Made by a program: the position numbers and the translations under genes. A stretch of 64,000 bases of DNA from a virus, in IMG/VR virus record IMGVR_UViG_3300031957_001651, positions 1-64,000 of that record, one strand, 5' to 3'. Of this stretch, positions 10,382 to 59,362 are shown piece by piece. The notes below the pieces were generated by a model that was not told the DNA's origin, ran no database searches, and worked only from the letters and a program-made list of their open reading frames with translations. Numbering within the stretch: position 1 is the stretch's first letter; each line of letters opens with the position of its first letter.

Positions 10382-10879
10382 ATGCCAAAAAGAAAACAAT
10401 CGGAACATTATGTAAATAATAGAGATTTCCTAGATGCAATTGTAGAGTATAAAAAAGCACGTGAAGCAGCAGCAGAGGCAGGTGAACCAAGACCTAGGAT
10501 CACAAATTATCTCGGTGAATGCTTTCTTAAGATTGCAACTCATTTATCATATAAACCAAACTTTGTCAATTACATCTTTAAGGATGATATGATCTCTGAT
10601 GGAGTGGAGAACTGTATTCAGTATATTCATAATTTTAATCCAGAGAAATCCACAAATCCTTTCGCATACTTCACTCAGATTATTCACTACGCATTCCTGA
10701 GACGTATTCAGAAAGAGAAAAAGCAGTTGGACATTAAGAATAAGATCTTAGAAAAGACTGGATATGATCAGGTATTTGTTAATGACAATACTGTTGACAA
10801 TTCCAACTATGCAGACTATAATAGCATCAAAGATGCTGTCTATTCTAAACTTAGAGGAATGGGTTCAAATAACGTATGA
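10382..10879 (+). CDS. gp55: Late-transcription sigma factor gp55
   Basis: HYVNNRDF, NPFAYFTQIIHYAFLRRIQKEKKQ. Confidence 0.97.
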   Translation: MPKRKQSEHYVNNRDFLDAIVEYKKAREAAAEAGEPRPRITNYLGECFLKIATHLSYKPNFVNYIFKDDMISDGVENCIQYIHNFNPEKSTNPFAYFTQIIHYAFLRRIQKEKKQLDIKNKILEKTGYDQVFVNDNTVDNSNYADYNSIKDAVYSKLRGMGSNNV

Positions 10880-32527: not shown

Positions 32528-33857
32528 AGAGTATGCAAGAAAAGTTATTCCTTTTTTGAAGAGGGAATATTTTGAAGAATCTTCTGAGCAAATTGTATAT
32601 GAAGAGATTTCAAAATTTATTAATGAGTATAATAAACTTGCTAGTAAAGAAATTCTTTGTATTGAAATTGAAAATCGAAAGGATGTTACTGACTCATCAT
32701 TCAAAGATATTATTAGTCTTGTTCAATCACTTGAAGATTCATCAAGTGAATTTGAGTGGTTGATTAATACTACTGAGAAGTGGTGTCGTGATCGTGCCAT
32801 TTATTTGGCACTTATGGAATCTATTCATATTGCAGATGGTAATGATGAGAAACAGAACCGTGATGCAATTCCTTCTATTCTTTCTAATGCACTTGGTGTA
32901 AGTTTTGATAATCATGTGGGTCATGATTATCTTCAAGACTATGAAGAACGATTTGAGTCATATAATCGGAAAGAAGATAAAATTCCATTTGATCTTGAGT
33001 ACTTTGATAAAATTACAAAAGGTGGTCTTCCCAATAAGACTCTTAATATTGCACTAGCAGGAACAGGTGTCGGTAAGTCTCTGTTCATGTGTCATATGGC
33101 TAGTTCAGTTTTGCTTGGTGGACGTAATGTTCTTTACATTACAATGGAGATGGCAGAGGAGAAGATTGCTGAACGTATTGATGCAAACCTTCTGAACGTA
33201 CCAATTCAGGAGATAAGTAATCTTCCTAAAGTTATGTTTGAGGATAAGGTGACAAAACTTGCACAAAAAACACAAGGTCAGCTTATAATTAAAGAATATC
33301 CAACTGCGAGCGCACATAGTGGACATTTCAGAGCACTTCTTAATGAGCTTGCACTTAAGAAGTCATTTAGACCTGATATTATTTTCATTGATTACCTTAA
33401 TATATGTGCTTCCAGCAGATATCGCCAGGGTGGCTCTATCAATTCATATTCATATATTAAGTCTATTGCAGAAGAGCTTAGAGGGTTGGCTTGCGAAGCC
33501 TCGGTCCCTATCGTATCTGCCACCCAGACCACTCGTTCTGGTTATGGTAGCTCTGACGTTGACCTTACTGACACTAGTGAGTCCTTTGGTCTCCCTGCTA
33601 CTGCTGATCTTATGTTTGCCCTTATTAGCACTGAGGAACTTGAGCAACTTGGACAGATAATGGTAAAGCAGTTGAAAAATAGATATAACGACGGAAATGT
33701 CAATAAGAGATTTGTAGTTGGTATTGATCGTGCCAAGATGCGTTTATATGATTGTGAGCAATCTGCTCAGAACGATATTCTTGACAGTGGGCAGGATGAG
33801 GAGTATAATAACGAAGATAGACCTAAAAAATCATTTGAGGGATTTAAATTTTCATGA
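32481..33857 (+). CDS. gp41: Replicative helicase gp41
   Basis: AGTGVGKS, MEMAEE, IDYLN, SATQTTR, QLKNRY. Confidence 0.98.
   Translation: MDKVEILILKNLLNNEEYARKVIPFLKREYFEESSEQIVYEEISKFINEYNKLASKEILCIEIENRKDVTDSSFKDIISLVQSLEDSSSEFEWLINTTEKWCRDRAIYLALMESIHIADGNDEKQNRDAIPSILSNALGVSFDNHVGHDYLQDYEERFESYNRKEDKIPFDLEYFDKITKGGLPNKTLNIALAGTGVGKSLFMCHMASSVLLGGRNVLYITMEMAEEKIAERIDANLLNVPIQEISNLPKVMFEDKVTKLAQKTQGQLIIKEYPTASAHSGHFRALLNELALKKSFRPDIIFIDYLNICASSRYRQGGSINSYSYIKSIAEELRGLACEASVPIVSATQTTRSGYGSSDVDLTDTSESFGLPATADLMFALISTEELEQLGQIMVKQLKNRYNDGNVNKRFVVGIDRAKMRLYDCEQSAQNDILDSGQDEEYNNEDRPKKSFEGFKFS
33781..33809 (+). promoter_or_regulatory. Perfect sigma70 promoter upstream of mazG
   Basis: TTGACA-17nt-TATAAT inside gp41 3' end. 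Confidence 0.8.
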
Positions 33858-45597: not shown

Positions 45598-46768
45598 GAT
45601 GTCATCCGTAGAAGAATCCAAAACTAAAGTTGAAGGCATGACCGTCTTCAATACTGAACAAGTAAATACAAAGAAGCAACCAATGTTTTTCGGTAAACCT
45701 TTGGGGGTACAAAGGTATGATTCCTATAAGTATCCAATTTTTGATAAGTTAACTACTCAACAATTAGGATACTTCTGGAGACCAGAAGAAGTTTCATTAC
45801 AGAAAGACCGTGGAGATTATCAAACACTTCGTCCAGAACAAAAGCATATCTATACAAGTAACCTCAAGTATCAGATTATGCTTGACTCCATACAAGGGCG
45901 TGGTCCTGGGATGGCTTTTATACCTTATTGCAGTCTACCCGAACTAGAGGCATGTATGGAAGTCTGGGGGTTCATGGAGATGATCCACAGTCGTTCTTAC
46001 ACATATATTATCAAGAATGTATATGCAGACCCTTCTGAGATCTTCGATAATATTGTCACTGATCCCCGCATTCTAGAACGTGCTGCGAGTGTCACAGGTG
46101 CATATGATGATTTCATTAATAGTGCCCAAACTTGGGGCAATGGTAGCATGTGGCAAGAAGATTTTAGAGACTCACCTTCATCCAAATGGGAAATTAAAGA
46201 TGTCAAAAGAAAACTCTACAGAGCAGTTGCAAACGTTAATGTTCTTGAGGGTATTAGGTTCTACGTTAGTTTTGCTTGTTCTTTCGCCTTTGGTGAACTC
46301 AAGCTCATGGAAGGATCAGCAAAAATTATTTCACTCATTGCAAGAGACGAAAACCAACATTTAGCAATCACTCAGAATATTCTGAATAAGTGGAAGTCAG
46401 GTGATGATCCTGAAATGAAGCAGATTATGAAGGAAGAGGAAGAGTGGACTTATCAGATGTTTAAAAATGCTGTTGATGAGGAGAAGAAGTGGGCAGAGTA
46501 CTTGTTCAAAGATGGATCTATGATTGGTTTGAATGACAAACTACTCAAGAATTATGTTGAGTGGATTGCAAATCGTCGTATGAAGTCTATTGGTCTTAAA
46601 CCAGTTTATGATATTTCTGCTAAAGCAAATCCACTACCTTGGACTGAGCATTGGATCTCCTCTAAAGGACTCCAGGTGGCACCACAAGAGACTGAAGTAG
46701 AGTCATATGTTGTGGGAGGCATTAAGCAGGATGTTAAAGCAGATACGTTCTCAGGATTTAAACTATGA
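45578..46768 (+). CDS. nrdB: Ribonucleotide reductase class Ia beta subunit
   Basis: FWRPEE, EMIHSRSY, LEGIRFY, RDENQH. Confidence 0.98.
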   Translation: MNPVQFKMSSVEESKTKVEGMTVFNTEQVNTKKQPMFFGKPLGVQRYDSYKYPIFDKLTTQQLGYFWRPEEVSLQKDRGDYQTLRPEQKHIYTSNLKYQIMLDSIQGRGPGMAFIPYCSLPELEACMEVWGFMEMIHSRSYTYIIKNVYADPSEIFDNIVTDPRILERAASVTGAYDDFINSAQTWGNGSMWQEDFRDSPSSKWEIKDVKRKLYRAVANVNVLEGIRFYVSFACSFAFGELKLMEGSAKIISLIARDENQHLAITQNILNKWKSGDDPEMKQIMKEEEEWTYQMFKNAVDEEKKWAEYLFKDGSMIGLNDKLLKNYVEWIANRRMKSIGLKPVYDISAKANPLPWTEHWISSKGLQVAPQETEVESYVVGGIKQDVKADTFSGFKL

Positions 46769-46917
46769 TGACACAATGGGCAATTAAGTTAATTGCTGAT
46801 AATACCGTTGAATTATCTGATGATGATCTTAGGTTACTGAGATTTGGACCTCAACCTTGGTTGCCTCATGAAGTTTTAAGGTATAACCTATTAAGACTCA
46901 AAGTTAAATCTGATTAA
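46765..46917 (+). CDS. Small hypothetical protein (50 aa)
   Basis: Manual read MMTQWAIKLIAD...LKVKSD; ATGA overlap. Confidence 0.5.
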   Translation: MMTQWAIKLIADNTVELSDDDLRLLRFGPQPWLPHEVLRYNLLRLKVKSD

Positions 46918-46921
46918 TCTT

Positions 46922-46942
46922 AAGACCTTCGGGTCTTTTTTT
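46922..46942 (+). terminator. Intrinsic terminator with cUUCGg loop
   Basis: AAGACC-TTCG-GGTCTT followed by T run. Confidence 0.9.
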
Positions 46943-47087
46943 GTAGGTATATACTCGTAGGCATAAATTTTTATTGCTAAAATGTATTGATTCGCACACA
47001 AACTGTATACATAGTATAGAATTATGGAGGTTAAGATGACTCTCTCTTGTCTACATTATGGATCTACTTTTTTACAGGAGAATGAAT

Positions 47088-47261
47088 ATGCACAACTTAC
47101 TATCAAAATCTCAACTAGATCAGTGGCGATCTTTTGAATCTACATTAGATGCATCGGAGGTGGAAAATCAAGCAATCAATGACTACTACGAATGTTTAAT
47201 AGAGTGCGATACACTGAAACAAAACGAATGTAAACGTATATGTAGGAGAATTTTAGATTAA
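47088..47261 (+). CDS. Small twin-CX3C protein
   Basis: AGGAG RBS at 47076; CLIEC-x7-CKRIC; flanked by terminators. Confidence 0.75.
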   Translation: MHNLLSKSQLDQWRSFESTLDASEVENQAINDYYECLIECDTLKQNECKRICRRILD

Positions 47262-47273
47262 ATATTATATCTT

Positions 47274-47296
47274 GAGACCCTAGGGTCTCTTTTTTT
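47274..47296 (+). terminator. Intrinsic terminator
   Basis: GAGACCC-TA-GGGTCTC followed by T run. Confidence 0.85.
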
Positions 47297-47327
47297 GTCT
47301 AAATATGCTAGACTATGGAAAATATGA

Positions 47328-47756
47328 ATGGTCGATTATGAAAATCCTTGGACTTTCTTGGAACGAAGTTTTGATAGTTGCGATGTTGGGGACTACTTTG
47401 GTTTTGTTTATCTCATTACCAATCTCACAAACCAACGACAGTACATTGGGAGAAAGTATTTTTGGTCGTTCAGAACCCCAAAAGGGAAGAAACGAAAGGT
47501 CAAGCAAGAGAGTGATTGGAAGCGGTATTATGGATCTTGTCCAGAATTAAAAGAGGATATAGAAAAGATTGGTAAAGATAAATTCAAGAGAGAAATTATA
47601 TCTTTACACAAAACAAAAGGAAAAACAAACTTTGAAGAGACAAGACAGTTGTTTCTTAACAATGTTCTTACAGAATCTCTTAACGGAGAACCAGCATATT
47701 ACAATAGTAATATTTTAAGTAGATATTTTAGAAAGGATTATTATGGAGACGATTGA
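47328..47756 (+). CDS. GIY-YIG family endonuclease
   Basis: GFVYLITN...QYIGRK, YYGS, E, YYN. Confidence 0.85.
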   Translation: MVDYENPWTFLERSFDSCDVGDYFGFVYLITNLTNQRQYIGRKYFWSFRTPKGKKRKVKQESDWKRYYGSCPELKEDIEKIGKDKFKREIISLHKTKGKTNFEETRQLFLNNVLTESLNGEPAYYNSNILSRYFRKDYYGDD

Positions 47757-48462
47757 TTCATACTTCAGATATTGTGCGGAGATAAGTAAAAAATCACAAA
47801 TTACAGAATACAACGAACATGTTCTTCATATTAAGAATGTTTTTAAGGATCCATATAGGATGCTTAAGTTTCAATCTTTAATTAGTAAGTGGGAATCTTG
47901 TCATAATGCTAAACCTGGAATTATGTCATTGAAACTTCCCTATTGGACTGGTGAAGTTATTGCAAAAGATATGATACCAGACTTACCACAACATGATGAG
48001 TATTTGAATGAGAGTGAGTTTTATTATTTTTACTATAATAATACTGGACTTGATTCTACTACAGATGACCTTAGAAGTAATAATTGTACATTACCACATA
48101 CTGACCCAGGTTCAGATAGATCAATACCTAATATGATTGGTCTTATTAATTTGAATCAAAGAGATGTTTCTACTGGTTTTTGGGAATTTGATGGATGTCT
48201 GACAGAAGATACTGATGAAATTGCTGATGAATATAATGATTATTGCAATGATATAAATGAACATAATTTTGAAGAAAAAACTAATAGTACTTTGAAAAAA
48301 TTATTTGATGTTTCTTATGGATTTAATGAGGCAATCTTTTATGACTCCAAAGCATTTCATCAACCAAATATAGATAAGTATTATACAAGAGAAAACCCAC
48401 GTATCATGATGAGGTTGTCATATGTTCTTGACGAGGAGGAGGATGAGTGTTATGATGACTGA
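47743..48462 (+). CDS. 2OG-Fe(II) oxygenase-like protein
   Basis: PHTD, LINLN...TGFW, FNEAIFYDS..FH, distal R. Confidence 0.7.
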   Translation: METIDSYFRYCAEISKKSQITEYNEHVLHIKNVFKDPYRMLKFQSLISKWESCHNAKPGIMSLKLPYWTGEVIAKDMIPDLPQHDEYLNESEFYYFYYNNTGLDSTTDDLRSNNCTLPHTDPGSDRSIPNMIGLINLNQRDVSTGFWEFDGCLTEDTDEIADEYNDYCNDINEHNFEEKTNSTLKKLFDVSYGFNEAIFYDSKAFHQPNIDKYYTRENPRIMMRLSYVLDEEEDECYDD

Positions 48463-48476
48463 GTTGAAAGGGTACT

Positions 48477-48644
48477 ATGGAAGAGCAAGTTATCGATTGC
48501 GTTTCGGATGTTATTGATTGGGCTAACCAACGCATAGTTTCGGAAGATATTGAGTGGGAGGATGCAGCAGCATTATCCTTAGAGTTTAAAGAGTGGTTAG
48601 AAGAAGATGAAATTGATCTCTTATACCTTGACAGACTTGACTAG
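48477..48644 (+). CDS. Small acidic hypothetical protein (55 aa)
   Basis: Manual read MEEQVIDCVSDVIDW...EFKEWLEEDEIDLLYLDRLD. Confidence 0.6.
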   Translation: MEEQVIDCVSDVIDWANQRIVSEDIEWEDAAALSLEFKEWLEEDEIDLLYLDRLD

Positions 48645-48656
48645 ATGATCTATAAT
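48628..48656 (+). promoter_or_regulatory. Perfect sigma70 promoter for tRNA cluster
   Basis: TTGACA-17nt-TATAAT. Confidence 0.85.
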
Positions 48657-48661
48657 TTAAG

Positions 48662-48725
48662 AGTTGAGAAATCAACTGCGGTAACTCCCTTGGTAGTTTA
48701 GAGTTAGCGGCGATAGGAACTACCA
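48662..48725 (+). ncRNA. Structured leader RNA: GNRA hairpin plus H-type pseudoknot
   Basis: AGTTGA-GAAA-TCAACT; TAACTC/GAGTTA crossed with TGGTAGTT/AACTACCA. Confidence 0.65.
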
Positions 48726-48728
48726 TTT

Positions 48729-48800
48729 GGGCTCATAGTTAAGCGGATATAACCACCGCCTTCTAAGCGGTTATCCCAGGTTCGATTCCTGGTGAGCCTG
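48729..48800 (+). tRNA. tRNA-Arg(UCU)
   Basis: Cloverleaf; ACCGC-CTTCTAA-GCGGT. Confidence 0.95.
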
Positions 48801-48816
48801 TTGCCTTTCTTCTTTT

Positions 48817-49017
48817 ATGGGTAAATATGATTTTGGTGGACAACCACCAGTAGCAGTCAATATACTGAGACTCATTAGTGAGTTGGAAGGTTCTTCTCAA
48901 ATGCTTAAATATATGGGATTTGAAGAAGATATGAATGCTATCAATGAAATGAAGAAGAGATACTATAAACTCTACTTCAAAACCAATAAGGAAGAAAAGG
49001 CAAACAATCCTCTATAG
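48817..49017 (+). CDS. Small hypothetical protein between tRNAs
   Basis: 66 aa; stop lies inside the tRNA-Asn 5' end. Confidence 0.7.
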   Translation: MGKYDFGGQPPVAVNILRLISELEGSSQMLKYMGFEEDMNAINEMKKRYYKLYFKTNKEEKANNPL

Positions 49018-49080
49018 CTCAGTTGGTAGAGCACGGAGATGTTAACTCTGTTGTCCCTGGTTCGAGTCCAGGTGGAGGAG
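49008..49080 (+). tRNA. tRNA-Asn(GUU)
   Basis: TCCTCTA/TGGAGGA acceptor, G73; CGGAG-ATGTTAA-CTCTG. Confidence 0.92.
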
Positions 49081-49083
49081 TAT

Positions 49084-49154
49084 GCGGGTTTAGTTTAGAG
49101 GTAAAACTGAAGGTTTCCAACCTTTCGTCAGGAGTTCGATTCTCCTAACCCGCT
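49084..49154 (+). tRNA. tRNA-Gly(UCC)
   Basis: GCGGGTT/AACCCGC, U73; GAAGG-TTTCCAA-CCTTT. Confidence 0.95.
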
Positions 49155-49200
49155 TCATAGTAACATTACTAAATACAATCATTGTTAATTTAATTTGACC

Positions 49201-49449
49201 ATGATATCTGTACAATGCAAGATCTGTAGAACAGAATTGTCAAGTACGTCTAAAGATCAATGCTGTGGTTGTTCAAATCAAATGGTATTGAAAGACGACA
49301 AAGTAACTGCGGTTAACTTGGGTGATGTTTTGATAACAAAAAACAATAAAAGTATTAACAATCACATCTCGTTATCAAAATCAGACTTAGAATACCAGGA
49401 GAACCGTAGACGAAGAAAGGTTCGTAAACTTGATTTTGAGGTAAGGTAG
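49201..49449 (+). CDS. Small Cys-rich (zinc-ribbon-like) protein
   Basis: CKIC...CCGCSN. Confidence 0.72.
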   Translation: MISVQCKICRTELSSTSKDQCCGCSNQMVLKDDKVTAVNLGDVLITKNNKSINNHISLSKSDLEYQENRRRRKVRKLDFEVR

Positions 49450-49682
49450 TGAGTCCTATCTACTACACAACATATCTTGTCTTGTTAATTTTCCTTACAC
49501 TTGTTGTAATTGGTGGTTACGAGTCTACAATGCGGTTAGTTCATTATCTTGATCTGCAACTTAGAATGGGATTCATTAGAATTCAAATGTTTTTTATGAG
49601 ACGTAGATTGAAAAAGCAACTAATTAATTCTTTCCACAAAAAAAATGGAGGTAAAAATGCCAGAAACAAAAACTTGCCCTAA
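49449..49682 (+). CDS. Small membrane protein
   Basis: N-terminal hydrophobic helix. Confidence 0.65.
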   Translation: MSPIYYTTYLVLLIFLTLVVIGGYESTMRLVHYLDLQLRMGFIRIQMFFMRRRLKKQLINSFHKKNGGKNARNKNLP

Positions 49683-49884
49683 GTGTGGTTCTACTTGGGT
49701 CGATGGACAGCATTATTGGAGTGGCACTGGAGCACTAGGAAATGAAGATGATCTTGCGGGACTAGTCTGCAATAAGTTAGGAAACGATGACTGTATTAAT
49801 CCAAAACGTGGTTCTGAAGAAGGAATTACTTGGAACGATAGGATGGATAGTCTAAATAAAAAGCAAAATGAATTGGATCAGTGA
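49657..49884 (+). CDS. Small Cys-containing hypothetical protein
   Basis: GGAGG RBS; CPKCG...DLAGLVCN...CINP. Confidence 0.72.
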   Translation: MPETKTCPKCGSTWVDGQHYWSGTGALGNEDDLAGLVCNKLGNDDCINPKRGSEEGITWNDRMDSLNKKQNELDQ

Positions 49885-49886
49885 TT

Positions 49887-50051
49887 ATGCCTAGAAGTAA
49901 AATGCAGAAGAATGATCTTGAAGCAAAAGTTTATAAACTAAAGAATGAACTTTATGATGAAACTCGACAAGATAAAGATGGTGAATGGCATGATGGTGCT
50001 CATTATACTTTAAATAGAGTTTTAGACATTCTACAAGAATATAGTAATTAA
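49887..50051 (+). CDS. Small hypothetical protein (54 aa)
   Basis: Manual read MPRSKMQKNDLEAKVYKLKNEL...LQEYSN. Confidence 0.6.
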   Translation: MPRSKMQKNDLEAKVYKLKNELYDETRQDKDGEWHDGAHYTLNRVLDILQEYSN

Positions 50052-50227
50052 TGGATTCAGATCAGGAGAGGGAGTTTTATAAGTCTTTGAGGGAAAGAAT
50101 TCATCAATTACGGATGGCTCATCTCTTTGAAGAACCTTGCCCACTCTATGAACCAGAGTGGGATGATGATCTTTGGGACTGTCGTCTTAGTTATGATTTC
50201 AATGACGATGATTTGACAGATGGTTAG
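50051..50227 (+). CDS. Small acidic hypothetical protein (58 aa)
   Basis: Manual read MDSDQEREFYKSLRERIHQLRMAHLFEEPCPLYEPEW... Confidence 0.6.
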   Translation: MDSDQEREFYKSLRERIHQLRMAHLFEEPCPLYEPEWDDDLWDCRLSYDFNDDDLTDG

Positions 50228-50241
50228 GAAAGTCTTATAAT
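50213..50241 (+). promoter_or_regulatory. Perfect sigma70 promoter for oxygenase/O-fucosyltransferase operon
   Basis: TTGACA-17nt-TATAAT. Confidence 0.85.
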
Positions 50242-50268
50242 TAGTATGTTCGGAATTTTTTGATAATA

Positions 50269-50853
50269 ATGGAACCTAGTAATAAACATCAAGTTGCTGA
50301 AGATCCCTTCGTTTTTTATGAACAGATCATTCCTGATAAACTAGTAGATCTGATGGTAGAAGAACTACCAAAGTATGATGGATCATATGCAGAAGCAGAG
50401 ATTGGAGATCGTCAAACTGGTGCATTGTTTGAAAATAAAAGAAACTCTAAAGTCTCTTGGATGTATGAAGATGACTGGGTTTCCTCTATGTTTGCACACT
50501 ATTTCCATTTGGCAAACAAAGAGTATTGGGAGTATGATCTTAATTGCTTAGATGGTATTCAGATCACTCGATATGATGAAGGTGATCATTATACCTGGCA
50601 TTCTGATTATGGAACTGCAGAAGATAATCGTTTTACCAGGAAACTAAGTGCAACTCTTCTAGTAACTGACCCTAGTGAGTATGAGGGTGGTGAACTAGAG
50701 TTCATTGACTATCATAATAATCTAGTTGTTGCACCTTCCACTAGAGGAACAATGATTGTGTTTGATTCACGTATTCCACATCGTGTTCGACCTGTGACTA
50801 AGGGAACTAGGATTTCTCTTGTAACGTGGATGCTTGGTCCTAAACTAGTGTAA
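50269..50853 (+). CDS. 2OG-Fe(II) oxygenase (PKHD/prolyl-hydroxylase-like)
   Basis: YTWHSD, RKLS, YEGGELEF, PHRVRPVTKGTRISLVTW. Confidence 0.92.
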   Translation: MEPSNKHQVAEDPFVFYEQIIPDKLVDLMVEELPKYDGSYAEAEIGDRQTGALFENKRNSKVSWMYEDDWVSSMFAHYFHLANKEYWEYDLNCLDGIQITRYDEGDHYTWHSDYGTAEDNRFTRKLSATLLVTDPSEYEGGELEFIDYHNNLVVAPSTRGTMIVFDSRIPHRVRPVTKGTRISLVTWMLGPKLV

Positions 50854-50854
50854 G

Positions 50855-51994
50855 ATGGTTAGATATATTTCTTTTAGTCCCTATTATTCTGGACTAGTGA
50901 ACATTATAATGTCATATGAAATGTTTCTGGCAATAGCAGCAATTACTAAGAGGAAGGTTATTCTTCCTCCAGATTGTTGGATGCTCTTTTTGTCTAAGAG
51001 TCAGAAGAAAGAGGACTGGATTGATTTCTGGAAAATCTTTGATAAAGAAGTTCTTCTGGAAGAATTTGACTGCATTGAACATAGAGATGTTCCAGAGTTC
51101 CAAGGAAAACTTGGAAAGATGCAGGGAAAAGATTCATATACTAGGGATATTGGACGATGTGATTTAGATCTTTCTGAAATCATTTTTGATTCATCTACAG
51201 TTTCTGATGAGCATACTGTATTTGTGAATGAAGAAATTGATACTCAGGACTTTCATGATTTCTGTCATAATCGAACTGTGATGGAACTTGATTGTGACGA
51301 ACAGTTTTTGCATTTTGAAAATAATCTGTTTGGTCATTACTGGTATCATGTTTATCCTGGTGGTGAAAATCTTAGGAATAAACTAAAGGATAAAGTGAAT
51401 AGAGTTTTGAGATATAATGATAAATTTTATTTCTATGCAGATACGGTCCACCAAGAACTCGGACCATTCAATTCTATTCACGTCAGACGAAACGATTTCT
51501 TAGATGCAAGAGAGGATGAGATTCAATGTGTAAATGCTCCTGAGAAGATTCTGGAGATGGTAGATAGACTTCCATTCTATGATAAGTCTTTACCTCTTTA
51601 TATTGCTACTGACGAGCAAGATAGATCATTTTTTGATTTGCTTGGGGAAAAGTATGATATTCATTTCTATGAAGATTTTGATTATAAGTTTGGTGATGAC
51701 TTTGAGGAAGATGATCTTCATATTGCGGTATTGGAACAAACAATATGTTCACAGTCTGAGAACTTCTTTGGAACTTATCTATCAACATTCTCGAAAAGAA
51801 TTAATATTATGAGAGGTCTTGAGAATAGACAAGCAGAAGATCATTTGGGTATTAATCATCTACCAGAAGAACCAGATGAGAACTTAGTAGATGTGTTTCC
51901 TTGGAGAAAGATGTCTGATAATACTTGGCAATGGAATTCATCATCACACTTGCAGTGGATGCATGAAGAGAATGGTAAATTGGTTGAACTATGA
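50855..51994 (+). CDS. GDP-fucose O-fucosyltransferase-like protein (GT-B)
   Basis: SGLVN...VILPP, IHVRRNDF, LYIATDE, LEQTICSQS..FFGTYLSTFS. Confidence 0.82.
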   Translation: MVRYISFSPYYSGLVNIIMSYEMFLAIAAITKRKVILPPDCWMLFLSKSQKKEDWIDFWKIFDKEVLLEEFDCIEHRDVPEFQGKLGKMQGKDSYTRDIGRCDLDLSEIIFDSSTVSDEHTVFVNEEIDTQDFHDFCHNRTVMELDCDEQFLHFENNLFGHYWYHVYPGGENLRNKLKDKVNRVLRYNDKFYFYADTVHQELGPFNSIHVRRNDFLDAREDEIQCVNAPEKILEMVDRLPFYDKSLPLYIATDEQDRSFFDLLGEKYDIHFYEDFDYKFGDDFEEDDLHIAVLEQTICSQSENFFGTYLSTFSKRINIMRGLENRQAEDHLGINHLPEEPDENLVDVFPWRKMSDNTWQWNSSSHLQWMHEENGKLVEL

Positions 51995-52686
51995 GAGATG
52001 TTTTACAACCCATATTCAATGATGTCCCTTTCAAGAAAGTAAAGGTTCCCGATAATCTTTATTCGTTTATGATGGATGAATACAAGAATCTAGTCTTTGA
52101 TATTAAAGATCAAGACATTACTTATGATAGGAACTATAGAACTTATACGAGTGGTGGAATCTCAATAAAAGGTTCTAGGACACCCTTCTGCTTAAAGACT
52201 GAGATATCTCAGGAATTGTATGATATGTGTTATGAAGAGATTACTCCAATGATTGAGGAGTGGTCTGGTCAAGAGTTGGAGATGACATGGGCATACGGGA
52301 TTAGGAACTATGTTCGGGATTCCATACTACATCTTCATAGAGACCGAATTGAAACTCATATAATTAGTTGTATAATTTATGTTGACCAACAATCTGAAGA
52401 GAATTGGGCATTAGATTTTTTTGATCACGAACACAATCATCATAAAGTTCTTTTTGAACCTGGTGATATGCTCTTTTACGAAAGTCTATGTTTGCATGGG
52501 AGAATTGATCCTTTACAAGGAGATTATTACAGAAACATGTACTTCCATTGGAAGCCAATTGATTGGTGGTACGACGACTTACACGACCTTAGGACTGACT
52601 TTAGAGATGCAACAGAATTTAGAAATTATTACGGAAAAGAATATCTCTACGGCAGAGAAGAAAGAATCATTCCCAGAACTCTCTGA
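51991..52686 (+). CDS. 2OG-Fe(II) oxygenase-like protein
   Basis: YGIRNY...LHLHRDR, PGDMLFYES...HGR. Confidence 0.78.
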   Translation: MRDVLQPIFNDVPFKKVKVPDNLYSFMMDEYKNLVFDIKDQDITYDRNYRTYTSGGISIKGSRTPFCLKTEISQELYDMCYEEITPMIEEWSGQELEMTWAYGIRNYVRDSILHLHRDRIETHIISCIIYVDQQSEENWALDFFDHEHNHHKVLFEPGDMLFYESLCLHGRIDPLQGDYYRNMYFHWKPIDWWYDDLHDLRTDFRDATEFRNYYGKEYLYGREERIIPRTL

Positions 52687-52772
52687 ACCACCTGACGAAC
52701 TGTCACAGGAAGAGGATGATGAAGAGTACATTAAGTGGTATACTAATCATGATCAAGCATCGTGATGCCACT

Positions 52773-52845
52773 GCTTCCTTAGCAATCTGGTGAATGCAGC
52801 AAACTCATAATTTGCCTAAGGTGAGTTCGATCCTCACAGGAAGCA
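52773..52845 (+). tRNA. tRNA-Met(CAU), non-initiator type (Ile2 not excluded)
   Basis: GCTTCCT/AGGAAGC paired acceptor; GCAAA-CTCATAA-TTTGC. Confidence 0.9.
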
Positions 52846-52851
52846 TTGGGA

Positions 52852-52880
52852 TTGACTTTCAGTCCCAAATCTGATAAACT
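52852..52880 (+). promoter_or_regulatory. Sigma70-type promoter overlapped by inverted repeat
   Basis: TTGACT-17nt-TAAACT, TG extension; TTGGGATTGA/TCAGTCCCAA. Confidence 0.6.
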
Positions 52881-52902
52881 ACTGGAGTAATTACACAAGA
52901 CA

Positions 52903-53118
52903 ATGACTATCACTGCTAAGTTCAAGAAGGATCTCAATACCCTTCGTTCTGCTGCAAACGGTGAAATTCTTCTAGACGTGAAGAATCCAAAACTTTTTAA
53001 AAAAGTACGTCGTTACTATGAGAACACTGGTGTTGTATTCTCTGGTGATCCACTTGATGATTATGATATCTTGATGGAATGGATTGCTAGTGATCTTGAA
53101 ACCACAGAGGTTGTTTGA
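52903..53118 (+). CDS. Small hypothetical protein
   Basis: LDVKNPKLFKKVRRYYEN.GVVFSGDPLDDY. Confidence 0.8.
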   Translation: MTITAKFKKDLNTLRSAANGEILLDVKNPKLFKKVRRYYENTGVVFSGDPLDDYDILMEWIASDLETTEVV

Positions 53119-53351
53119 TGAAAGTTCTATTAGAACGTTTCCCCTATCGTTATGTTGAGTGTGGAACTCTTGAAAATGGGTTCCCAGATTACCGCATTCA
53201 AAAGGCGCATCACTACACTAAGAGGTATAGTGACATGTATCTCCTTGATAATCAGATGCAACTATTGACTGTTATTGATGACTTTGAATACACCAAATGG
53301 TTAGATCCTGAAGGTGTACCTTGTTATATCAAAGACTCGGTAGGTCGTTAA
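53118..53351 (+). CDS. Small hypothetical protein
   Basis: ERFPYRYVECG...DYRIQK...WLDPEGVPCY. Confidence 0.8.
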   Translation: MKVLLERFPYRYVECGTLENGFPDYRIQKAHHYTKRYSDMYLLDNQMQLLTVIDDFEYTKWLDPEGVPCYIKDSVGR

Positions 53352-53368
53352 ACTAGCCCTGGTCGGAG
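53332..53368 (+). ncRNA. Structured motif copy 1 (manA/wcaG-RNA-like unit candidate)
   Basis: AAGACTCGGTAGGTCGTTAAACTAGCCCTGGTCGGAG; covaries with the 55262 copy. Confidence 0.5.
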
Positions 53369-53386
53369 TATTATTTCAAATAAAAT

Positions 53387-54937
53387 ATGTTTAACCTAGG
53401 TATTCATGGTTCTCACAATGCAACACTTGTATTGTCTTATGAAGATGAAGTTTTAGAAGTAGTAGAACTTGAGAGATTTATCTCTCATAAAAATGCTGCT
53501 CTATATTTTTATGAGAATCCTCCTCATGCAATTAGTTTTGTAAGGGAGATTGGTGAATACTTTAAAAGGAAATATAATTTTGACAGGTATGATGTAGTTT
53601 GTATTAACTCTATGCCTGAAGAGAAGTTTCCTTGGAAAGATGTATTTGGTGATGCCGATATTGAGTATTGTGATCATCATGTTGCTCATACCTGTTCTGC
53701 CTTCTATCAATCACCATATAATCAAGCATTAGTTGTTTCTTTTGATGGTGGTTCTGATGAGGGTTTCTTTAATGTATATACCATTGAGAGAGGTGAAGAC
53801 CCAGTAAAGTTGTATTCTGGTAAGAAAGATTATGCTGTCTCTTATATGGCAGCTGGTCATTTTGTTCCTGCCATTCGCAACGAAGAAGATATTTACAAAG
53901 GTAATCTAGTTTATCCTGGTAAATTGATGGGTTATGTTGGATATGGTGAATATCGTGATGATATTGCTAATAAGTTGATTCAATTTTATGAATCAAATAC
54001 TTATGACGATGTTCCAGATGCTGTCTGTAGATTTGTACAAAAGTTTGGACTAGAAGACTGGTCTGAACAATTCGGACTACAGGATGCACAAGATATTGCA
54101 ACAACTAATCAAATTGTATTTGAGAAGTTGTTCAGAGAAGAGATACAACCATTTCTAGATCAGTATCCAGATTTACCTTTGGTTTTGACTGGTGGTTGTG
54201 CTCTTAATATCATTAACAATACGAATCTAGCAAGAGAACGTGAAGTTTTCATTCCACCAAATCCTAGTGATTGTGGCATTGCATTAGGTGCGTTGCTATA
54301 CATCATTAAACCAGAACGTCAGATTGATATCACTTATTCGGGATCACCTGTGTGGGATCGAATGGAGATTGGTAGATATCTACGTGAAAGAGAGAATTGT
54401 CAAGAGATTTCTGCAAAAGAAGTTGCAAAGATTATTCACGATGGTGGTATTGTTGGTGTAGTTCGTGGTGGATCTGAGCATGGTCCTAGAGCACTCGGGA
54501 ATAGAAGTCTCTTATGTGATGCAACTAATCCCGATATGAAAGACATTATGAATCTTAAGGTGAAGAATCGAGAATCGTTTAGACCTTTTTCTCCAATTGT
54601 AAGACTTGAAGATTTAACCAAGTATTTTGATTGGGAAAAGGAGTCTAGACATATGTCCTTTTCACCAGAAGTGAGACCAGAGTATCGTAAATTACTATCT
54701 TCTGTTACTCATGTAGACGGAACTGCAAGAGTTCAAACAGTTACTAGAACCCAGAATGAATATATCTACCAGATTCTAGGTGAACTAGACACTATGTCTG
54801 GTCATGGAGTTCTACTCAATACTTCTTTTAATGTAGCAGGTAAACCAATCTTGAATACATATAAGGAAGCATTTGAAGTTCTCGATGCAAAACCCATAAC
54901 TGGGTTAGTCCTAGAAGATTACTATTTTCCAAAATGA
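53387..54937 (+). CDS. O-carbamoyltransferase (NodU/CmcH/TobZ family)
   Basis: ELER, HHVAH, FDGG, GKLMG, GGCALN, PSDCG, GPRALGNRS, RESFRPF, HVDGTARVQ, NTSFN. Confidence 0.95.
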   Translation: MFNLGIHGSHNATLVLSYEDEVLEVVELERFISHKNAALYFYENPPHAISFVREIGEYFKRKYNFDRYDVVCINSMPEEKFPWKDVFGDADIEYCDHHVAHTCSAFYQSPYNQALVVSFDGGSDEGFFNVYTIERGEDPVKLYSGKKDYAVSYMAAGHFVPAIRNEEDIYKGNLVYPGKLMGYVGYGEYRDDIANKLIQFYESNTYDDVPDAVCRFVQKFGLEDWSEQFGLQDAQDIATTNQIVFEKLFREEIQPFLDQYPDLPLVLTGGCALNIINNTNLAREREVFIPPNPSDCGIALGALLYIIKPERQIDITYSGSPVWDRMEIGRYLRERENCQEISAKEVAKIIHDGGIVGVVRGGSEHGPRALGNRSLLCDATNPDMKDIMNLKVKNRESFRPFSPIVRLEDLTKYFDWEKESRHMSFSPEVRPEYRKLLSSVTHVDGTARVQTVTRTQNEYIYQILGELDTMSGHGVLLNTSFNVAGKPILNTYKEAFEVLDAKPITGLVLEDYYFPK

Positions 54938-55281
54938 ATCATATAGATAAACCGTGGGGTTGGTATAAAGATCTTGAAAGACATCATAATGTGGTGATTA
55001 AAAAGATTTATGTTAAACCTTTTAAGAGAATTTCTCTTCAAAAACATGCTTATAGAGATGAGTTTTGGTATATTCTTTCTGGTTCTGGGGAGGTAATTGT
55101 TGGTAATGAAAATTTACCAGCAAATCCAGGTGTATCTTTTATTATTGGTAGAGGTGAAATTCATCGAATTACAGCAAATTCTGATGGTATTACCTTCCTA
55201 GAAGTTCAAGAAGGTGAATGTAGAGAAGATGATATTGTCCGTTTAGAGGATGATTATAATAGAGTCACGGATGGACTGTAA
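54934..55281 (+). CDS. Cupin, type II phosphomannose isomerase domain-like
   Basis: KPWGWY, ISLQKH..RDEFW, HRI, EVQ.G...EDDIVRLEDDY. Confidence 0.88.
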   Translation: MNHIDKPWGWYKDLERHHNVVIKKIYVKPFKRISLQKHAYRDEFWYILSGSGEVIVGNENLPANPGVSFIIGRGEIHRITANSDGITFLEVQEGECREDDIVRLEDDYNRVTDGL

Positions 55282-55348
55282 CAGAACTGGTGGAGTCAAT
55301 TGACCCTATTAGGTTTCTTGTTTCCTCAAAAAACAAGTGGCGAGCCTG
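55262..55348 (+). ncRNA. Structured motif copy 2 plus pseudoknot (manA/wcaG-RNA-like candidate)
   Basis: GAGTCACGGATGGACTGTAACAGAACTGGTGGAG; AGG/CCT crossed with CTTGTTT/AAACAAG, then TGG. Confidence 0.55.
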
Positions 55349-55356
55349 CAAGACCC

Positions 55357-55380
55357 AGAGGGAATCTTTCCCTCTTTTTT
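55357..55380 (+). terminator. Intrinsic terminator
   Basis: AGAGGGAA-TCT-TTCCCTCT followed by T run. Confidence 0.88.
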
Positions 55381-55416
55381 ATTCTAAATATTACATAACG
55401 TTCAAATTAAATTAAA

Positions 55417-55734
55417 ATGGCATACAAAGGAACAGCAGCAAAATCTTCAAGTGGTGCATCTATGTCAAAGTATGACGTAGAAGTCGAAGCAAGACTTAAA
55501 GCACTGGAAGCAGAAGCACATACAAAGCCAACTGGTGCTACTGCAGCAAAGGTTGAAGAGAGACTATCTGCTTTGGAAGCAAAAGCACACACACCTTGCG
55601 AAGGTGGTGGTAAGTCTGCTAAAGTAAATGCAGCAGCACTTCCAGCCAATGCTCCTAGAAAGACTACTCAACCACAAGGAAGAATCGACGCACTAGAAGC
55701 AAGACTTGAGGCACTAATCGCACAACTTTCCTGA
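55417..55734 (+). CDS. Late-expressed coiled-coil repeat protein
   Basis: VEARLKALEAEAHT / VEERLSALEAKAHT repeat; CTAAATA at 55384. Confidence 0.75.
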   Translation: MAYKGTAAKSSSGASMSKYDVEVEARLKALEAEAHTKPTGATAAKVEERLSALEAKAHTPCEGGGKSAKVNAAALPANAPRKTTQPQGRIDALEARLEALIAQLS

Positions 55735-55740
55735 TGACTT

Positions 55741-56355
55741 ATGTCAATTGAATTGATTCCTTTATTCTCTGTCCCTGTTATTAAGTTTAAGTTCAGTAAG
55801 CATAATAATTACAACTTCCCAACCATTAGGAGGCAAGAACGCATTCCTGATGGTTGGGAACTTTCGCTTAATAGTACATATCCAGAAATAGAAGATGATG
55901 ATCCATTGGTTCCTCGTGAAATGAGAGAGTCTATGGAACGTGATCTATATCTTGATACTAGGGCAGTATTGAAAAGACTTGATGTATCTTATGACAATAT
56001 TTTTATAAAGGATTTTTGGTATAACGTATACCATGAAGATCAAGGACAAGAACCTCATGATCATCTTGGAAATGCGGGAGATCCATCCCTTTATTGGTCA
56101 TGCATCTATTATAATAGAGGAGCATCACCAACAAAGTTTCATAATGCACATAGATATATGAAACTTTGTATGCCAGTTCACCTTGGGGAGAATTCACCAC
56201 TTTCCGATATGTATATTGATATGTATGACCAGGAAGTTGATGATGGTGATATCATTATGTTTCCACCTTGGATGGTTCATGAGGTTGTTCCTCAAAAGAA
56301 AGTTGATAAAATGAGATTGACATTTACATTTAACATAGGATATAATCATGAGTGA
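55741..56355 (+). CDS. 2OG-Fe(II) oxygenase-like protein (HxH type)
   Basis: WYNVY...[27 protein letters not shown]. Confidence 0.85.
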
Positions 56356-57376
56356 TGTGAAGAAGAAAATGAAGACAGCATTAATTACTGGTATTACTGG
56401 GCAGGATGGTTCTTATCTTGCCGAGTTGCTACTTGAAAAGGGATATATGGTGCATGGCATTGTTCGGAGAGCATCTCTAATCAATACTGCTCGCATTGAT
56501 CATATCTTTGATCATGAACGAGTTAAGTTGCATTATGGGGATCTATCTGATTCTGCAAATATTGTTCATATCCTTCAGAAATGTCAACCAGATGAGATCT
56601 ATAATCTTGCTGCACAAAGTCATGTGAAGGTATCTTTTGAGATGCCCGAGTACACTGGTAATGTAGATGGTCTTGGCACACTTCGTATCCTTGAAGCAGT
56701 TCGTATTTTAGGTATGGAGAAGAAGTGCCGTATCTATCAAGCATCAACGTCTGAGATGTATGGACTTGTTCAGGAGACTCCTCAGACTGAGACCACACCT
56801 TTCTATCCACGTTCTCCATATGGATGTGCAAAGGTTTACTCCTATTGGATCACAAAGAACTATCGTGAGTCCTATGGAATGTATGCTTGTACTGGCATCC
56901 TATTCAATCATGAATCACCTCGTCGTGGTGAGACCTTTGTGACTCGTAAGATCACTCGTGGTCTTTCTCGTATTTCTGTTGGAGAGCAAAAGGTTCTCTA
57001 TCTTGGAAACCTAGATGCAAAACGAGATTGGGGACATGCAAAGGATTATGTTCGTGCTATGTGGTTAATGCTGCAACAGGATGAACCTGATGATTTTGTG
57101 ATTGCTACTGGAAAGCAGTATTCAGTTCGTGAATTTGTGGAAAGAGTTGCTCCTTACTTTGGAATTACAATTGAATGGGTTGGTGAGGGTGATGATGAGA
57201 TTGGTATGGATAAGCATACTAGGAAAACAATTATTGCTGTCCATCCTAAATATTATCGTCCTGCTGAAGTTGAAACTCTTCTTGGTGATTCTACCAAAGC
57301 AAAGGAGAAACTTGGATGGGAACCTGAAATTTCTTTCGATGAACTAATTGAGGATATGTGTATCTATGGACAATGA
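56348..57376 (+). CDS. gmd: GDP-mannose 4,6-dehydratase
   Basis: [44 protein letters not shown]. Confidence 0.98.
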
Positions 57377-58376
57377 TTCAAGAATTTTTCTTGCTGGTCA
57401 TAATGGTTTAGTTGGGTCAGCAATTCTTAGAAAGTTAAGGGCAGAAGGATATAAAAATATTATTCTTGCCGATAGATCTGTTGATCTTAGGTATGCTGAT
57501 CAAGTAAAATCATTCATTAGTGAATCGATACCAGATTATGTTATCTGTGCTGCAGCAAAAGTTGGTGGTATTATTGGTAATAGAGATTACAAAGCAGATA
57601 TCATCTGGGATAATCTAATGATTCAAACGAATCTGATTGATCTCTCATGGGATTGGAATGTTAAAAAACTTCTCTTCTTGGGATCGTCTTGCATCTATCC
57701 AAAACATGCATCGATTCCAATCAAAGAGGAATCTCTATTGACTGGTCCTTTAGAACCAACGAATGATGCTTATGCAATTGCAAAGATTGCTGGTATTAAG
57801 ATGTGTCAATCATACCATGAACAGCATGGTTTTAATGCCATCAGTGCAATGCCTTGCAATCTATATGGACCTGGTGATAACTTTCACCCAGAGAAGTCTC
57901 ATGTTCTTCCTGGAATGATTCGCAGATTCCATGAAGCAAAGGAACAGAATTTGCCAACAGTAACTTGCTGGGGTGATGGTTCACCTTTACGTGAGTTCTT
58001 GCATGTAGATGACCTTGCGTCCGCATGTGTATATCTGATGAATAATTATGATGATCCTCAGCAAATCATCAACGTTGGATCTGGAATTGAAGTTTCAATT
58101 AAGGAACTTGCAGAAACTATTGCTGATGTAGTAGGATATAAGGGTCTCATTATGTGGGACACTGAAAAACCAAATGGAACCATGCGTAAAGTAATGGATG
58201 TTTCCAGAATCAAAGCAACTGGATGGGAACCAAAGATTAGTTTGCGTGAAGGTATTGAGTTTACCTATAAATGGTTTGTTGATTCTCTGGGTGCAATTAG
58301 AGGTATGGATGATCTTGAAGGTGAAGTGAATGAGATTCTTAAAAAGAATTGTTGTAAAGGATGTAGTGAAGAATGA
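57366..58376 (+). CDS. fcl: GDP-L-fucose synthase (Fcl/WcaG)
   Basis: [44 protein letters not shown]. Confidence 0.97.
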
Positions 58377-59362
58377 AAACAGCATTAGTTTGTGGAGCAG
58401 GTGGCTTTATTGGAAGTCATATGGTTCGTCGTCTCAAAAAAGAAGGATATTGGGTTCGTGGAGTTGATCTAAAGTATCCAGAGTTTTCAGAAACAGAAGC
58501 AGATGAGTTTATTATTGGTGATTTGACTGATGATGCATTAGCATTAAATGTTTGTAATCGATCCTTTGATGAGATCTATCAGTTTGCTGCTGATATGGGT
58601 GGAGCAGGTTATCTCTTTACGGGTGAGAACGATGCAAATATTATGCATAACTCTGTTCAGATTAATCTGAATGTTTTAAGAGCAGCATCAATTACATCGA
58701 TTGATACTACAAAGATTTTCTATTCATCTTCTGCTTGTGTCTATTCAGAACTCAACCAGGAGGATGTAAATCATATTGATACATCTGAGGCAAGTGTATA
58801 TCCTGCACAACCAGACTCTGAGTATGGGTGGGAAAAATTATTCAGTGAGAGACTGTACTTTGCTTTTGCAAAGCAGTATGAACTAGATGTAAAGGTTGCA
58901 CGTTATCATAATGTATTTGGTCCTGAGGGAACCTGGACTGGTGGTAAGGAGAAAGTACCTGCTGCTATGTGTCGTAAGGTTGCTGAAGTTCCTGAAGTTG
59001 GTGGACATATTCAGGTTTGGGGTAATGGTGAGCAAACAAGATCATTCCTGTTCATTGATGAATGTATTGAAGCAACATATCGTTTGATGCAATCCGATTG
59101 GAGTGGACCAGTTAATATTGGTTCTGAAGAGATGGTTAGTATTAATGATCTTGTAGATATTGTTTCCAGTGTTGCTGGAAAACCAGTTCGTAGAGTTCAT
59201 AAGATTGATGCCAATTGTATTGGTGTTAAGGCACGTAACTCAAATAATGATTTGATTCGTAAGATGCTAGAATGGGATTATACGATGTCTTTGAAAGAAG
59301 GTATTGAAATTACTTACGATTGGATTCGTACACAAGTTGAGGAGTCTAATAAATGTTCCTAG
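58373..59362 (+). CDS. NAD-dependent epimerase, GDP-mannose 3,5-epimerase-like
   Basis: GAGGFIGSH, AADMGGAGY, SSACVY, YGWEKL, GGKEKVPAAMCRK. Confidence 0.88.
   Translation: MKTALVCGAGGFIGSHMVRRLKKEGYWVRGVDLKYPEFSETEADEFIIGDLTDDALALNVCNRSFDEIYQFAADMGGAGYLFTGENDANIMHNSVQINLNVLRAASITSIDTTKIFYSSSACVYSELNQEDVNHIDTSEASVYPAQPDSEYGWEKLFSERLYFAFAKQYELDVKVARYHNVFGPEGTWTGGKEKVPAAMCRKVAEVPEVGGHIQVWGNGEQTRSFLFIDECIEATYRLMQSDWSGPVNIGSEEMVSINDLVDIVSSVAGKPVRRVHKIDANCIGVKARNSNNDLIRKMLEWDYTMSLKEGIEITYDWIRTQVEESNKCS

Follow-up and report, generated by a model that had tools for sequence, protein, structure and literature searches.

An oxygenase–glycosyltransferase cassette in a cyanophage as a candidate system for hydroxylating and glycosylating proline-rich protein segments

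Do two oxygenase genes and the glycosyltransferase gene between them encode a single pathway in a cyanophage, and what might that pathway modify? The question arises from a 64,000-nt stretch of viral DNA (IMG/VR record IMGVR_UViG_3300031957_001651, positions 1 to 64,000; hereafter, the window) that derives from a T4-like cyanomyovirus. Here, the genes for a prolyl 4-hydroxylase (P4H)-like 2-oxoglutarate (2OG)-Fe(II) oxygenase (ORF1), a glycosyltransferase (GT) and a divergent second oxygenase (O3) abut one another, with tRNA genes on both sides, and follow a perfect TTGACA-17-TATAAT promoter sequence (Table 1). An earlier note, made from the sequence alone, had described this arrangement and proposed a self-contained, early-expressed three-gene operon that fucosylates a hydroxylated protein, tRNA or DNA base. 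Our analysis confirms the observation and supports the interpretation in part. Judged from sequence comparisons, the trio is a conserved functional unit within a cassette of four or more genes. On balance, we favour the view that the trio and a nearby carbamoyltransferase are the cyanophage version of a widespread phage and bacterial cassette that modifies proline-rich (Pro-Thr/Ser repeat) protein segments.

GT and O3 recur together in varied arrangements. Among 50,697 phage records, both were found in Synechococcus phage S-SCSM1 (Kyanoviridae) only; metagenomes contain many homologues. S-SCSM1 matches positions 50000–53000 of the window at 83.6% identity over the whole length and keeps the gene order, with ORF112, ORF113 and ORF114 as orthologues of ORF1, GT and O3 (82%, 86% and 93% protein identity; annotated as 2OG-Fe(II) oxygenase, GDP-fucose protein O-fucosyltransferase and 2OG-Fe(II) oxygenase, respectively). 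The paper on that phage treats the three genes one by one and proposes no joint function (PMC9602691).

We collected 80 viral and 44 bacterial loci with GT relatives, mapped their domains by tblastn and with hidden Markov models (HMMs) built in the course of the analysis, and dereplicated them at 70% GT identity to 30 viral and 38 bacterial clusters. O3 was fused to GT or lay within 1.5 kb of it in 63 of the 80 viral and 34 of the 44 bacterial loci, mostly with an overlap of 4–14 nt and in either order. After dereplication, 20/30 viral and 28/38 bacterial clusters had O3 alongside GT, and 19/30 and 24/38, respectively, had P4H. Within the window, GT starts 1 nt past the ORF1 stop codon and O3 overlaps GT by 4 nt (ATGA).

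The same domains are also found joined in single polypeptides, which we checked with Pfam where possible. Several independent clusters of 605–622-aa metagenome proteins are GT–O3 fusions that match O3 end to end at 46–50% identity, and a further GT–O3 fusion occurs in locus L015; a fusion of opposite order first called in L110 was later mapped as two domains in separate frames. In 37 viral loci, P4H and O3 form one protein, and four bacterial loci (L091, L104, L108 and L115) have a GT–P4H fusion. In L087 and L105, a hydroxyproline arabinosyltransferase (HPAT) domain, a Gnt1-like domain, P4H and O3 are combined, in one case in a protein of 1184 aa. Fusions and adjacency also occur in phages and bacteria that have no polysaccharide island. 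Co-occurrence, varied order and domain fusion across many phage and bacterial lineages all point to a functional unit, as the earlier note had supposed. The note had named a lack of co-occurrence in other genomes as grounds for rejecting its proposal, and the comparison shows the opposite.

The families of the three proteins are consistent with hydroxylation and sugar transfer. ORF1 matches PF13640 (E = 1.1e-17; 65.2 bits against a cut-off of 27) and phrog_61 (E = 7e-41). Its H111-x-D113 and H171 iron triad is invariant in our alignment A3, and the 2OG site R181-I-S183 (R181-x-S183) is present, with lysine replacing the arginine in some relatives. The most likely start codon is the ATG at 50269; the list of open reading frames (ORFs) has the TTG at 50260. 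When P4Hs from bacterial cassettes were used to query the 91.8-kb contig of which the window is part, ORF1 was the best match (E = 3e-32) and the next ORF scored 0.37. By this comparison, the P4H of the bacterial cassettes corresponds specifically to ORF1 and not to another oxygenase of the contig. Its family, and the hydroxyproline-type transferases in related cassettes, suggest that ORF1 would hydroxylate peptidyl proline.

GT fits PF10250 (O-FucT; E = 3.3e-16, 60.2 bits against a cut-off of 31.5) nearly throughout, with residues 13–321 covering profile positions 10–324 of 326. The O-fucosyltransferase motifs that had been recognized by eye (HVRRNDF, YIATDE and STFS) lie in conserved columns: among 19 homologues, H209, R211, R212, D214, F215, Y249, I250, T252, D253, S310 and T311 are invariant and E254 nearly so. 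In a profile search that retrieved POFUT2 structures at E = 1e-15, the H-x-R-R-x-D segment (H209–F215) aligned with HWRRRDF, which holds the catalytic arginine pair of POFUT2. An AlphaFold2 model of GT (predicted local distance difference test score (pLDDT) of 93) returned POFUT2 and POFUT1 as the top Foldseek matches (E = 1e-8; template modelling score of approximately 0.45), followed by NodZ, AtFUT1 and FUT8.

O3 is harder to place by sequence. It scores below the PF13640 cut-off (E = 0.006; 17.9 bits against 27), has no NCBIfam hit and has no sequence relative in the PDB by profile search. Its AlphaFold2 model (pLDDT of 91.8) is a prolyl-hydroxylase-like double-stranded beta-helix that matches PHD2, Trichoplax PHD, the PBCV-1 enzyme vCPH (Z = 12.8) and Pseudomonas PPHD over residues 8–199, with Z scores of 12.4–14.5. 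The H116-x-D118...H169 triad is invariant in 26 phage and bacterial relatives and lands on the ORF1 iron triad in a profile–profile alignment. The second oxygenase of the note thus has the fold and triad of 2OG oxygenases, even though it falls below the Pfam cut-off. Both oxygenases are P4H- or PHD-like, and neither gave a TET/JBP or AlkB family hit. The family is large, with 4,937 representatives at E ≤ 1e-3 and 922 at E ≤ 1e-30, and its members are also fused to PqqD, PF11397 and ankyrin repeats. Three metagenome proteins of 844–972 aa (P0169, P0170 and P0171) carry two or three O3 domains, the first two together with PF13640 and the third with ankyrin repeats; multi-oxygenase arrays therefore exist as single polypeptides. 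The O3 homologue of the IMG/VR contig L053 (7154–7870) has two in-frame stops in a region that aligns at 51% identity, reflecting a pseudogene, a sequencing error or recoding, and was left out of the O3 alignment.

What the cassette modifies is suggested by its relatives. Bacterial cassettes come mostly from Hyphomicrobiales metagenome-assembled genomes (MAGs), and also from Acidobacteriota, Nitrospirales, Myxococcota and Microthrix. Their gene order is precursor, PqqD protein, O3, GT, P4H, Gnt1-like glycosyltransferase and an HPAT–PqqD fusion, and their GT carries an HprK-related-kinase-A-like domain. The precursors consist of a coiled-coil leader with a conserved hydrophobic motif, followed by terminal (A/S/T)PT tandem repeats; a leader-bearing precursor and a PqqD-like recognition element were both present in 26 bacterial relatives. 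Gnt1-like (PF11397) genes occur in 20 viral and 23 bacterial related loci, and HPAT-family (PF23452) domains in 23 related bacterial loci, beside P4H and repeat precursors. PF11397 includes the Skp1 hydroxyproline GlcNAc-transferase, and PF23452 the plant HPATs. Together with the recognition element, these two families point to peptide proline hydroxylation followed by O-glycosylation. The full bacterial order is seen, for example, on an Oricola sp. chromosome (NZ_OZ246003.1; L094, 3281–10857), with PmbA/TldD, GNAT and NTP_transf_5 genes nearby, and similarly in L084–L123. Clusters of this type look like a bacterial pathway for hydroxyproline-rich glycopeptides that resemble ribosomally synthesized and post-translationally modified peptides (RiPPs).

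Viral cassettes have repeat proteins of their own. In 25 of the 46 non-cyanophage viral loci, a protein with Pro-Thr/Pro-Ser (PT/PS) repeats is encoded on the same strand no more than 300 nt upstream, and many of the other loci have no upstream sequence. Of the eight viral repeat proteins that were scanned, three have matches among families of tail proteins, Hoc-like head-decoration proteins or virion structural proteins. Gnt1-like genes were found only where P4H is present, and loci with O3, GT and the carbamoyltransferase that lack P4H still have PT/PS-repeat neighbours. This pattern, which is no proof, suggests that O3 serves the POFUT-like GT and that P4H serves the Gnt1- and HPAT-type transferases. 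With these transferases, PqqD domains, Pro-Thr precursors and viral repeat proteins, the hydroxylate-then-glycosylate scheme put forward earlier fits a protein substrate.

The cassette appears to extend beyond the trio. The carbamoyltransferase exceeds the cut-offs for Carbam_trans_N and Carbam_trans_C (78.3 and 189.7 bits) and matches TobZ, NovN and GdmN structures at E = 1e-33 to 1e-43. Homologues are fused to the C terminus of GT in 15 viral loci, all of them non-cyanophage, and lie within 5 kb of GT in 41. This recurrence makes the gene a probable fourth cassette member and replaces the idea of a self-contained three-gene operon.

Fucose, the sugar originally proposed, may not be the one that is transferred. 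The gmd and fcl genes do lie downstream, at 3.7 kb rather than the approximately 4 kb first estimated, and are linked to GT only in this phage clade and in L053. GDP-mannose 3,5-epimerase (GME), a short-chain dehydrogenase, by contrast has homologues (54–64% identity) beside GT in 24 viral and 5 bacterial loci. Because GME, and not gmd or fcl, travels with GT, we regard GDP-L-galactose as a donor at least as likely as GDP-L-fucose, with GME as the probable donor supply and gmd and fcl as an alternative one. L-galactose is L-fucose plus a 6-OH group, and O-carbamoyltransferases of the NodU/TobZ family modify such primary hydroxyls in Nod factors and tobramycin. The 6-OH of L-galactose would accordingly be a candidate site of carbamoylation in the cassette.

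From the families, folds, catalytic residues, fusions, neighbourhoods and repeat proteins observed here and elsewhere, we infer the following chemistry, step order, sugar and target for this phage. ORF1 and O3 would hydroxylate target residues, most likely proline. GT, which may be physically or kinetically coupled to O3 since the two are fused in relatives, would then transfer an L-sugar to the new hydroxyl or to a neighbouring threonine or serine. The GDP-linked donor would be GDP-L-galactose if supplied by the phage GME, or GDP-L-fucose if supplied through gmd and fcl. Finally, the carbamoyltransferase would O-carbamoylate the product, for which L-galactose, unlike fucose, offers a 6-OH. 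The target may be a proline-rich virion protein encoded elsewhere, our best guess being a protein such as the central spike of S-SCSM1 with its PT/PS tail. A broader formulation is possible, and we advance it tentatively: marine phages and many bacteria may possess a native extensin- or mucin-like system in which P4H and O3, a POFUT-like L-galactosyl- or fucosyltransferase and an O-carbamoyltransferase coat Pro-Thr/Ser linkers with carbamoylated L-sugars, whether these linkers belong to surface proteins of virions or to peptides that bacteria export. The version in this cyanophage would be portable and would act in trans on a protein whose gene lies elsewhere.

Several findings weigh against modification of a proline-rich target by these enzymes. 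The usual R-x-S 2OG-binding site is not conserved in O3; the invariant R171 and R105 may substitute for it. SnoN (Z = 12.6) and HygX score close to the prolyl hydroxylases in the O3 fold comparisons and, because the R-x-S site is also missing, O3 may not be a standard hydroxylase and may act on the sugar instead. POFUT enzymes glycosylate serine and threonine directly, without prior hydroxylation, and about a third of the viral GT clusters lack O3 and P4H (O3 is missing in 10/30), indicating that GT can work without them. Surface proteins of phages and bacteria often contain PT linkers, so that some of the repeat-protein adjacency could be incidental. In the window and the rest of the contig, we found no Pro-Thr/Ser repeats, PqqD, HPAT or, with an HMM from cassette members, Gnt1. 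A repeat protein, a recognition element, Gnt1 and HPAT were also absent from all 19 cyanophage-type loci in the DNA that was fetched. For this phage, the target is thus extrapolated from distant relatives. With its consensus early promoter, the cassette would be no less suited to a host target than to a late virion protein. Searches of the window and contig for collagen-like Gly-X-Y runs were likewise negative, and the sole proline-rich stretch of the contig is in a 271-aa ORF at contig position 80698–81510. In the S-SCSM1 genome (all but the last 13 kb), three proline-rich proteins were found: the central spike ORF217 (PT/PS tail), the VrlC-like ORF19 (PQ/PR repeats) and ORF165.

In one rival reading, the same chemistry serves host takeover, with a translation factor, ribosomal protein or cell-surface protein as its target early in infection. 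The window contains five perfect TTGACA-N16-18-TATAAT sites, all on the plus strand, against 0.13 expected from shuffles and thus more than chance would give; judged from the consensus, they are probably the early promoters of the phage. Perfect sigma-70 promoters are of the type that serves early genes in T4-like cyanophages, and one stands right upstream of the trio, with no candidate substrate near the cassette in the cyanophage-type loci. Early expression, as the note proposed it, is suggested by the promoter consensus only. Among the nearest O3 folds are OGFOD1, Tpa1 and the EF-Tu hydroxylase PPHD; bacterial PPHD modifies EF-Tu, and OGFOD1 and Tpa1 modify uS12. Fold similarity to PHD-type enzymes is generic, however, and nothing ties the cassette to a specific host protein, whereas cassettes in other viruses directly follow PT/PS-repeat proteins, some of virion families, and bacteria have a dedicated precursor. 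We therefore consider a host target unlikely, although no other alternative comes as close.

GT could also be a member of the downstream polysaccharide or lipopolysaccharide island and fucosylate a glycan, the flanking oxygenases being unrelated to it. A big island of GT2, GT11, gmd, fcl and GME genes indeed follows the cassette, and some viral GT clusters lack O3, as described above. The S-SCSM1 paper lists 24 2OG-Fe(II) oxygenase genes, and classes ORF113 under cell wall synthesis and modification (PMC9602691). Oxygenases that were merely neighbours would not explain the GT–O3, P4H–O3 and GT–P4H fusions, the adjacency that is kept where no island exists or the specific match of the cassette P4Hs to ORF1, and a glycan target is in our view improbable.

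We give still less credence to a small-molecule product, that is, a hydroxylated, glycosylated and carbamoylated RiPP-like peptide or amino-acid-derived metabolite. The idea draws on the bacterial relatives, which resemble RiPP clusters dependent on a recognition element (PqqD, PmbA/TldD protease and HprK-related kinase domain), and on the natural-product pathways to which the related carbamoyltransferases TobZ, NovN and GdmN belong. Neither a PqqD domain nor a recognizable precursor was found in the window or contig, and the two small neighbouring ORFs belong to the cyanomyovirus core, occurring in approximately 400–460 phage records without GT. Hydroxylation and glycosylation of a DNA or tRNA base, as in TET/JBP systems with a glycosyltransferase, has next to no chance of being correct: the cassette does sit among tRNA genes, and O3 has a weak, non-significant match to a Naegleria Tet-like dioxygenase in the PDB profile search (23 residues; E = 0.25–0.37), but insertions into the tRNA island are general, and neither Tet_JBP nor AlkB came up at E ≤ 1 when ORF1 and O3 were scanned against Pfam. 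Prolyl hydroxylases lead the fold matches of O3, and AlkB ranks below them, although a family's absence from such rankings would not by itself decide the matter. GT, finally, is POFUT-like and partnered elsewhere with peptide-recognition domains and hydroxyproline-type transferases.

Table 1. Positions of the cassette genes and neighbouring features in the window.
Feature	Position	Strand	Remarks
ORF1, P4H-like 2OG-Fe(II) oxygenase	50269–50853	+	194 aa; PF13640, phrog_61
GT, POFUT-like GT-B glycosyltransferase	50855–51994	+	379 aa; PF10250; GDP-beta-L-sugar (fucosyltransferase) superfamily
O3, divergent Fe(II)/2OG-oxygenase-fold protein	51991–52686	+	231 aa; fold and triad; family without a Pfam model; GT's obligate partner
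O-carbamoyltransferase (NodU/CmcH/TobZ type)	53387–54937	+	516 aa; PF02543, PF16861; 0.7 kb past O3; probable cassette member
Putative sigma-70-type promoter, TTGACA-17-TATAAT, perfect	50213–50241	+	27 nt before the ORF1 start codon; function predicted from consensus only
Five perfect promoter sites	10794–10822, 33781–33809, 48628–48656, 50213–50241, 56317–56346	+	consensus match
tRNA-Arg, tRNA-Asn, tRNA-Gly	48728–49154		upstream of the trio; ARAGORN
tRNA-Met (CAT)	52772–52846	+	ARAGORN and S-SCSM1 annotation; lies after the trio, ahead of the remaining genes of the probable transcription unit
Cupin gene	54934–55281	+	downstream of the carbamoyltransferase gene
Hairpin, 8 pairs and direct T run	55357–55375	+	first such after the promoter; possible unit end after the cupin gene; consensus only
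gmd	56348–57376	+	97% identity to S-SCSM1 gene annotated GDP-mannose 4,6-dehydratase
fcl	57348–58376	+	81% identity to S-SCSM1 gene annotated GDP-L-fucose synthase
GME (makes GDP-L-galactose)	58373–59362	+	Arabidopsis GME structures, E = 1.5e-80

The surroundings of the trio (Table 1) belong to a variable island at the tRNA genes, which is where the cassette is inserted. Among the five promoter sites, one stands ahead of tRNA-Arg and one ahead of gmd. A single transcription unit may run from ORF1 through tRNA-Met, two small ORFs and the carbamoyltransferase gene to the cupin gene, since no 8-pair hairpin with a T run occurs on the plus strand before 55357–55375; a weaker match with 6 pairs lies inside the carbamoyltransferase gene (53834–53853). 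The tRNA-Met is no functional part of the cassette. At gathering score, the Rfam tRNA model did not report it, although the three upstream tRNAs were found; at the same threshold, Rfam gave no hit in 46000–58000 to the wcaG RNA of the S-SCSM1 annotation. S-SCSM1 has a tRNA-Pro (102094–102167) between the upstream small gene and ORF112, where the window has 41 nt (50228–50268) that include the promoter end. An 84-aa ORF (49195–49449) with a C-x-x-C ... C-G-C pattern and a basic C-terminal RRxRKVRKLDFE is conserved in 20 cyanophage-type loci and has no Pfam hit.

The two small ORFs (52903–53118, 71 aa; 53115–53351, 78 aa) are strongly conserved and border the cassette in all cyanophage-type loci, whatever the gene order, and in L016 they sit between O3 and GT; their invariant motifs are LDVKNPKL and KWLDP..vPCY. 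We ruled them out as dedicated substrates or adaptors: tblastn found them in 397 and 461 phage records, of which only S-SCSM1 has GT. They therefore mark a recurrent insertion site as core cyanomyovirus genes and are not cassette partners. One locus binned as a Parvibaculum sp. MAG (L082; NZQM01000012.1, 9.9 kb) has the viral architecture of O3, GT and carbamoyltransferase. Its GT groups with those of viral contigs, and this locus is probably of phage origin and mis-binned. One marine metatranscriptome contains contigs of a 90–95% similar relative over parts of ORF1, GT and the carbamoyltransferase; because the library may include DNA and contigs are no proof of a transcript, we did not count them as expression.

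Hydroxyproline-linked glycosylation is well established in plants and some protists, and collagen-type hydroxylases and transferases are known from animals and giant viruses. In our literature search, we found no description of a phage or bacterial P4H–glycosyltransferase system or of a hydroxyproline-glycosylated RiPP. A close parallel is the Skp1 pathway of Dictyostelium and Toxoplasma (PhyA, Gnt1, then Gal and Fuc transferases), in which soluble glycosyltransferases, coupled to a cytoplasmic P4H-type oxygenase, act on the hydroxyl that it introduces, and whose Gnt1 family is represented in related cassettes. The Skp1 glycan also contains fucose. Unlike that pathway, the phage cassette has no Gnt1 in the window or contig, its first or only glycosyltransferase is POFUT-like, and it has O3 and a carbamoyltransferase; Skp1 is modified at a single proline, whereas the cassette targets are probably repeat segments. 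The hydroxyproline-rich glycoproteins of plants, made by P4H and HPAT on extensins, arabinogalactan proteins and CLE peptides, share the Ser/Thr/Ala-Pro repeat substrates and, in the bacterial loci, the HPAT domains. They differ in that the cassette is prokaryotic or viral and has no secretory pathway, the phage has no HPAT and the donor is probably a GDP-L-sugar rather than UDP-arabinofuranose.

POFUT1 and POFUT2 (GT65 and GT68) share the Pfam family, GT-B fold and H-x-R-R-x-D donor motif with the cassette GT. Identity is approximately 15%, however, there are no EGF or TSR acceptor domains here, GT is partnered or fused with an oxygenase and a carbamoyltransferase, and its travel with GME suggests L-galactose. 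The bifunctional collagen lysyl hydroxylase/glycosyltransferases (human LH3/PLOD3 and mimivirus L230) and the prolyl 4-hydroxylase of chlorovirus PBCV-1 resemble the cassette in joining hydroxylase and glycosyltransferase in one polypeptide or operon for repeat-rich structural proteins, viruses included, whereas they act on lysine or proline of Gly-X-Y collagen repeats, with GT-A-type domains and a different glycosyltransferase family. The parts of the cassette that differ from known systems are the POFUT-like GT, the unnamed second oxygenase family, the carbamoyltransferase and GME.

The fusions and the neighbouring repeat proteins make our proposal that the cassette modifies proline-rich segments directly testable. 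If it is correct, it would assign a concrete role to a part of the large and unexplained set of 2OG oxygenases in cyanophages, and O3, with approximately 4,900 cluster representatives, would define a new oxygenase family. A new protein modification would be predicted, carbamoylated L-galactose or fucose on hydroxylated proline-rich linkers. Phage surface proteins that carry it could be glyco-shielded or adhesive, which would matter for the hosts that are infected, for the stability of the particles and for what becomes of phages in the sea.

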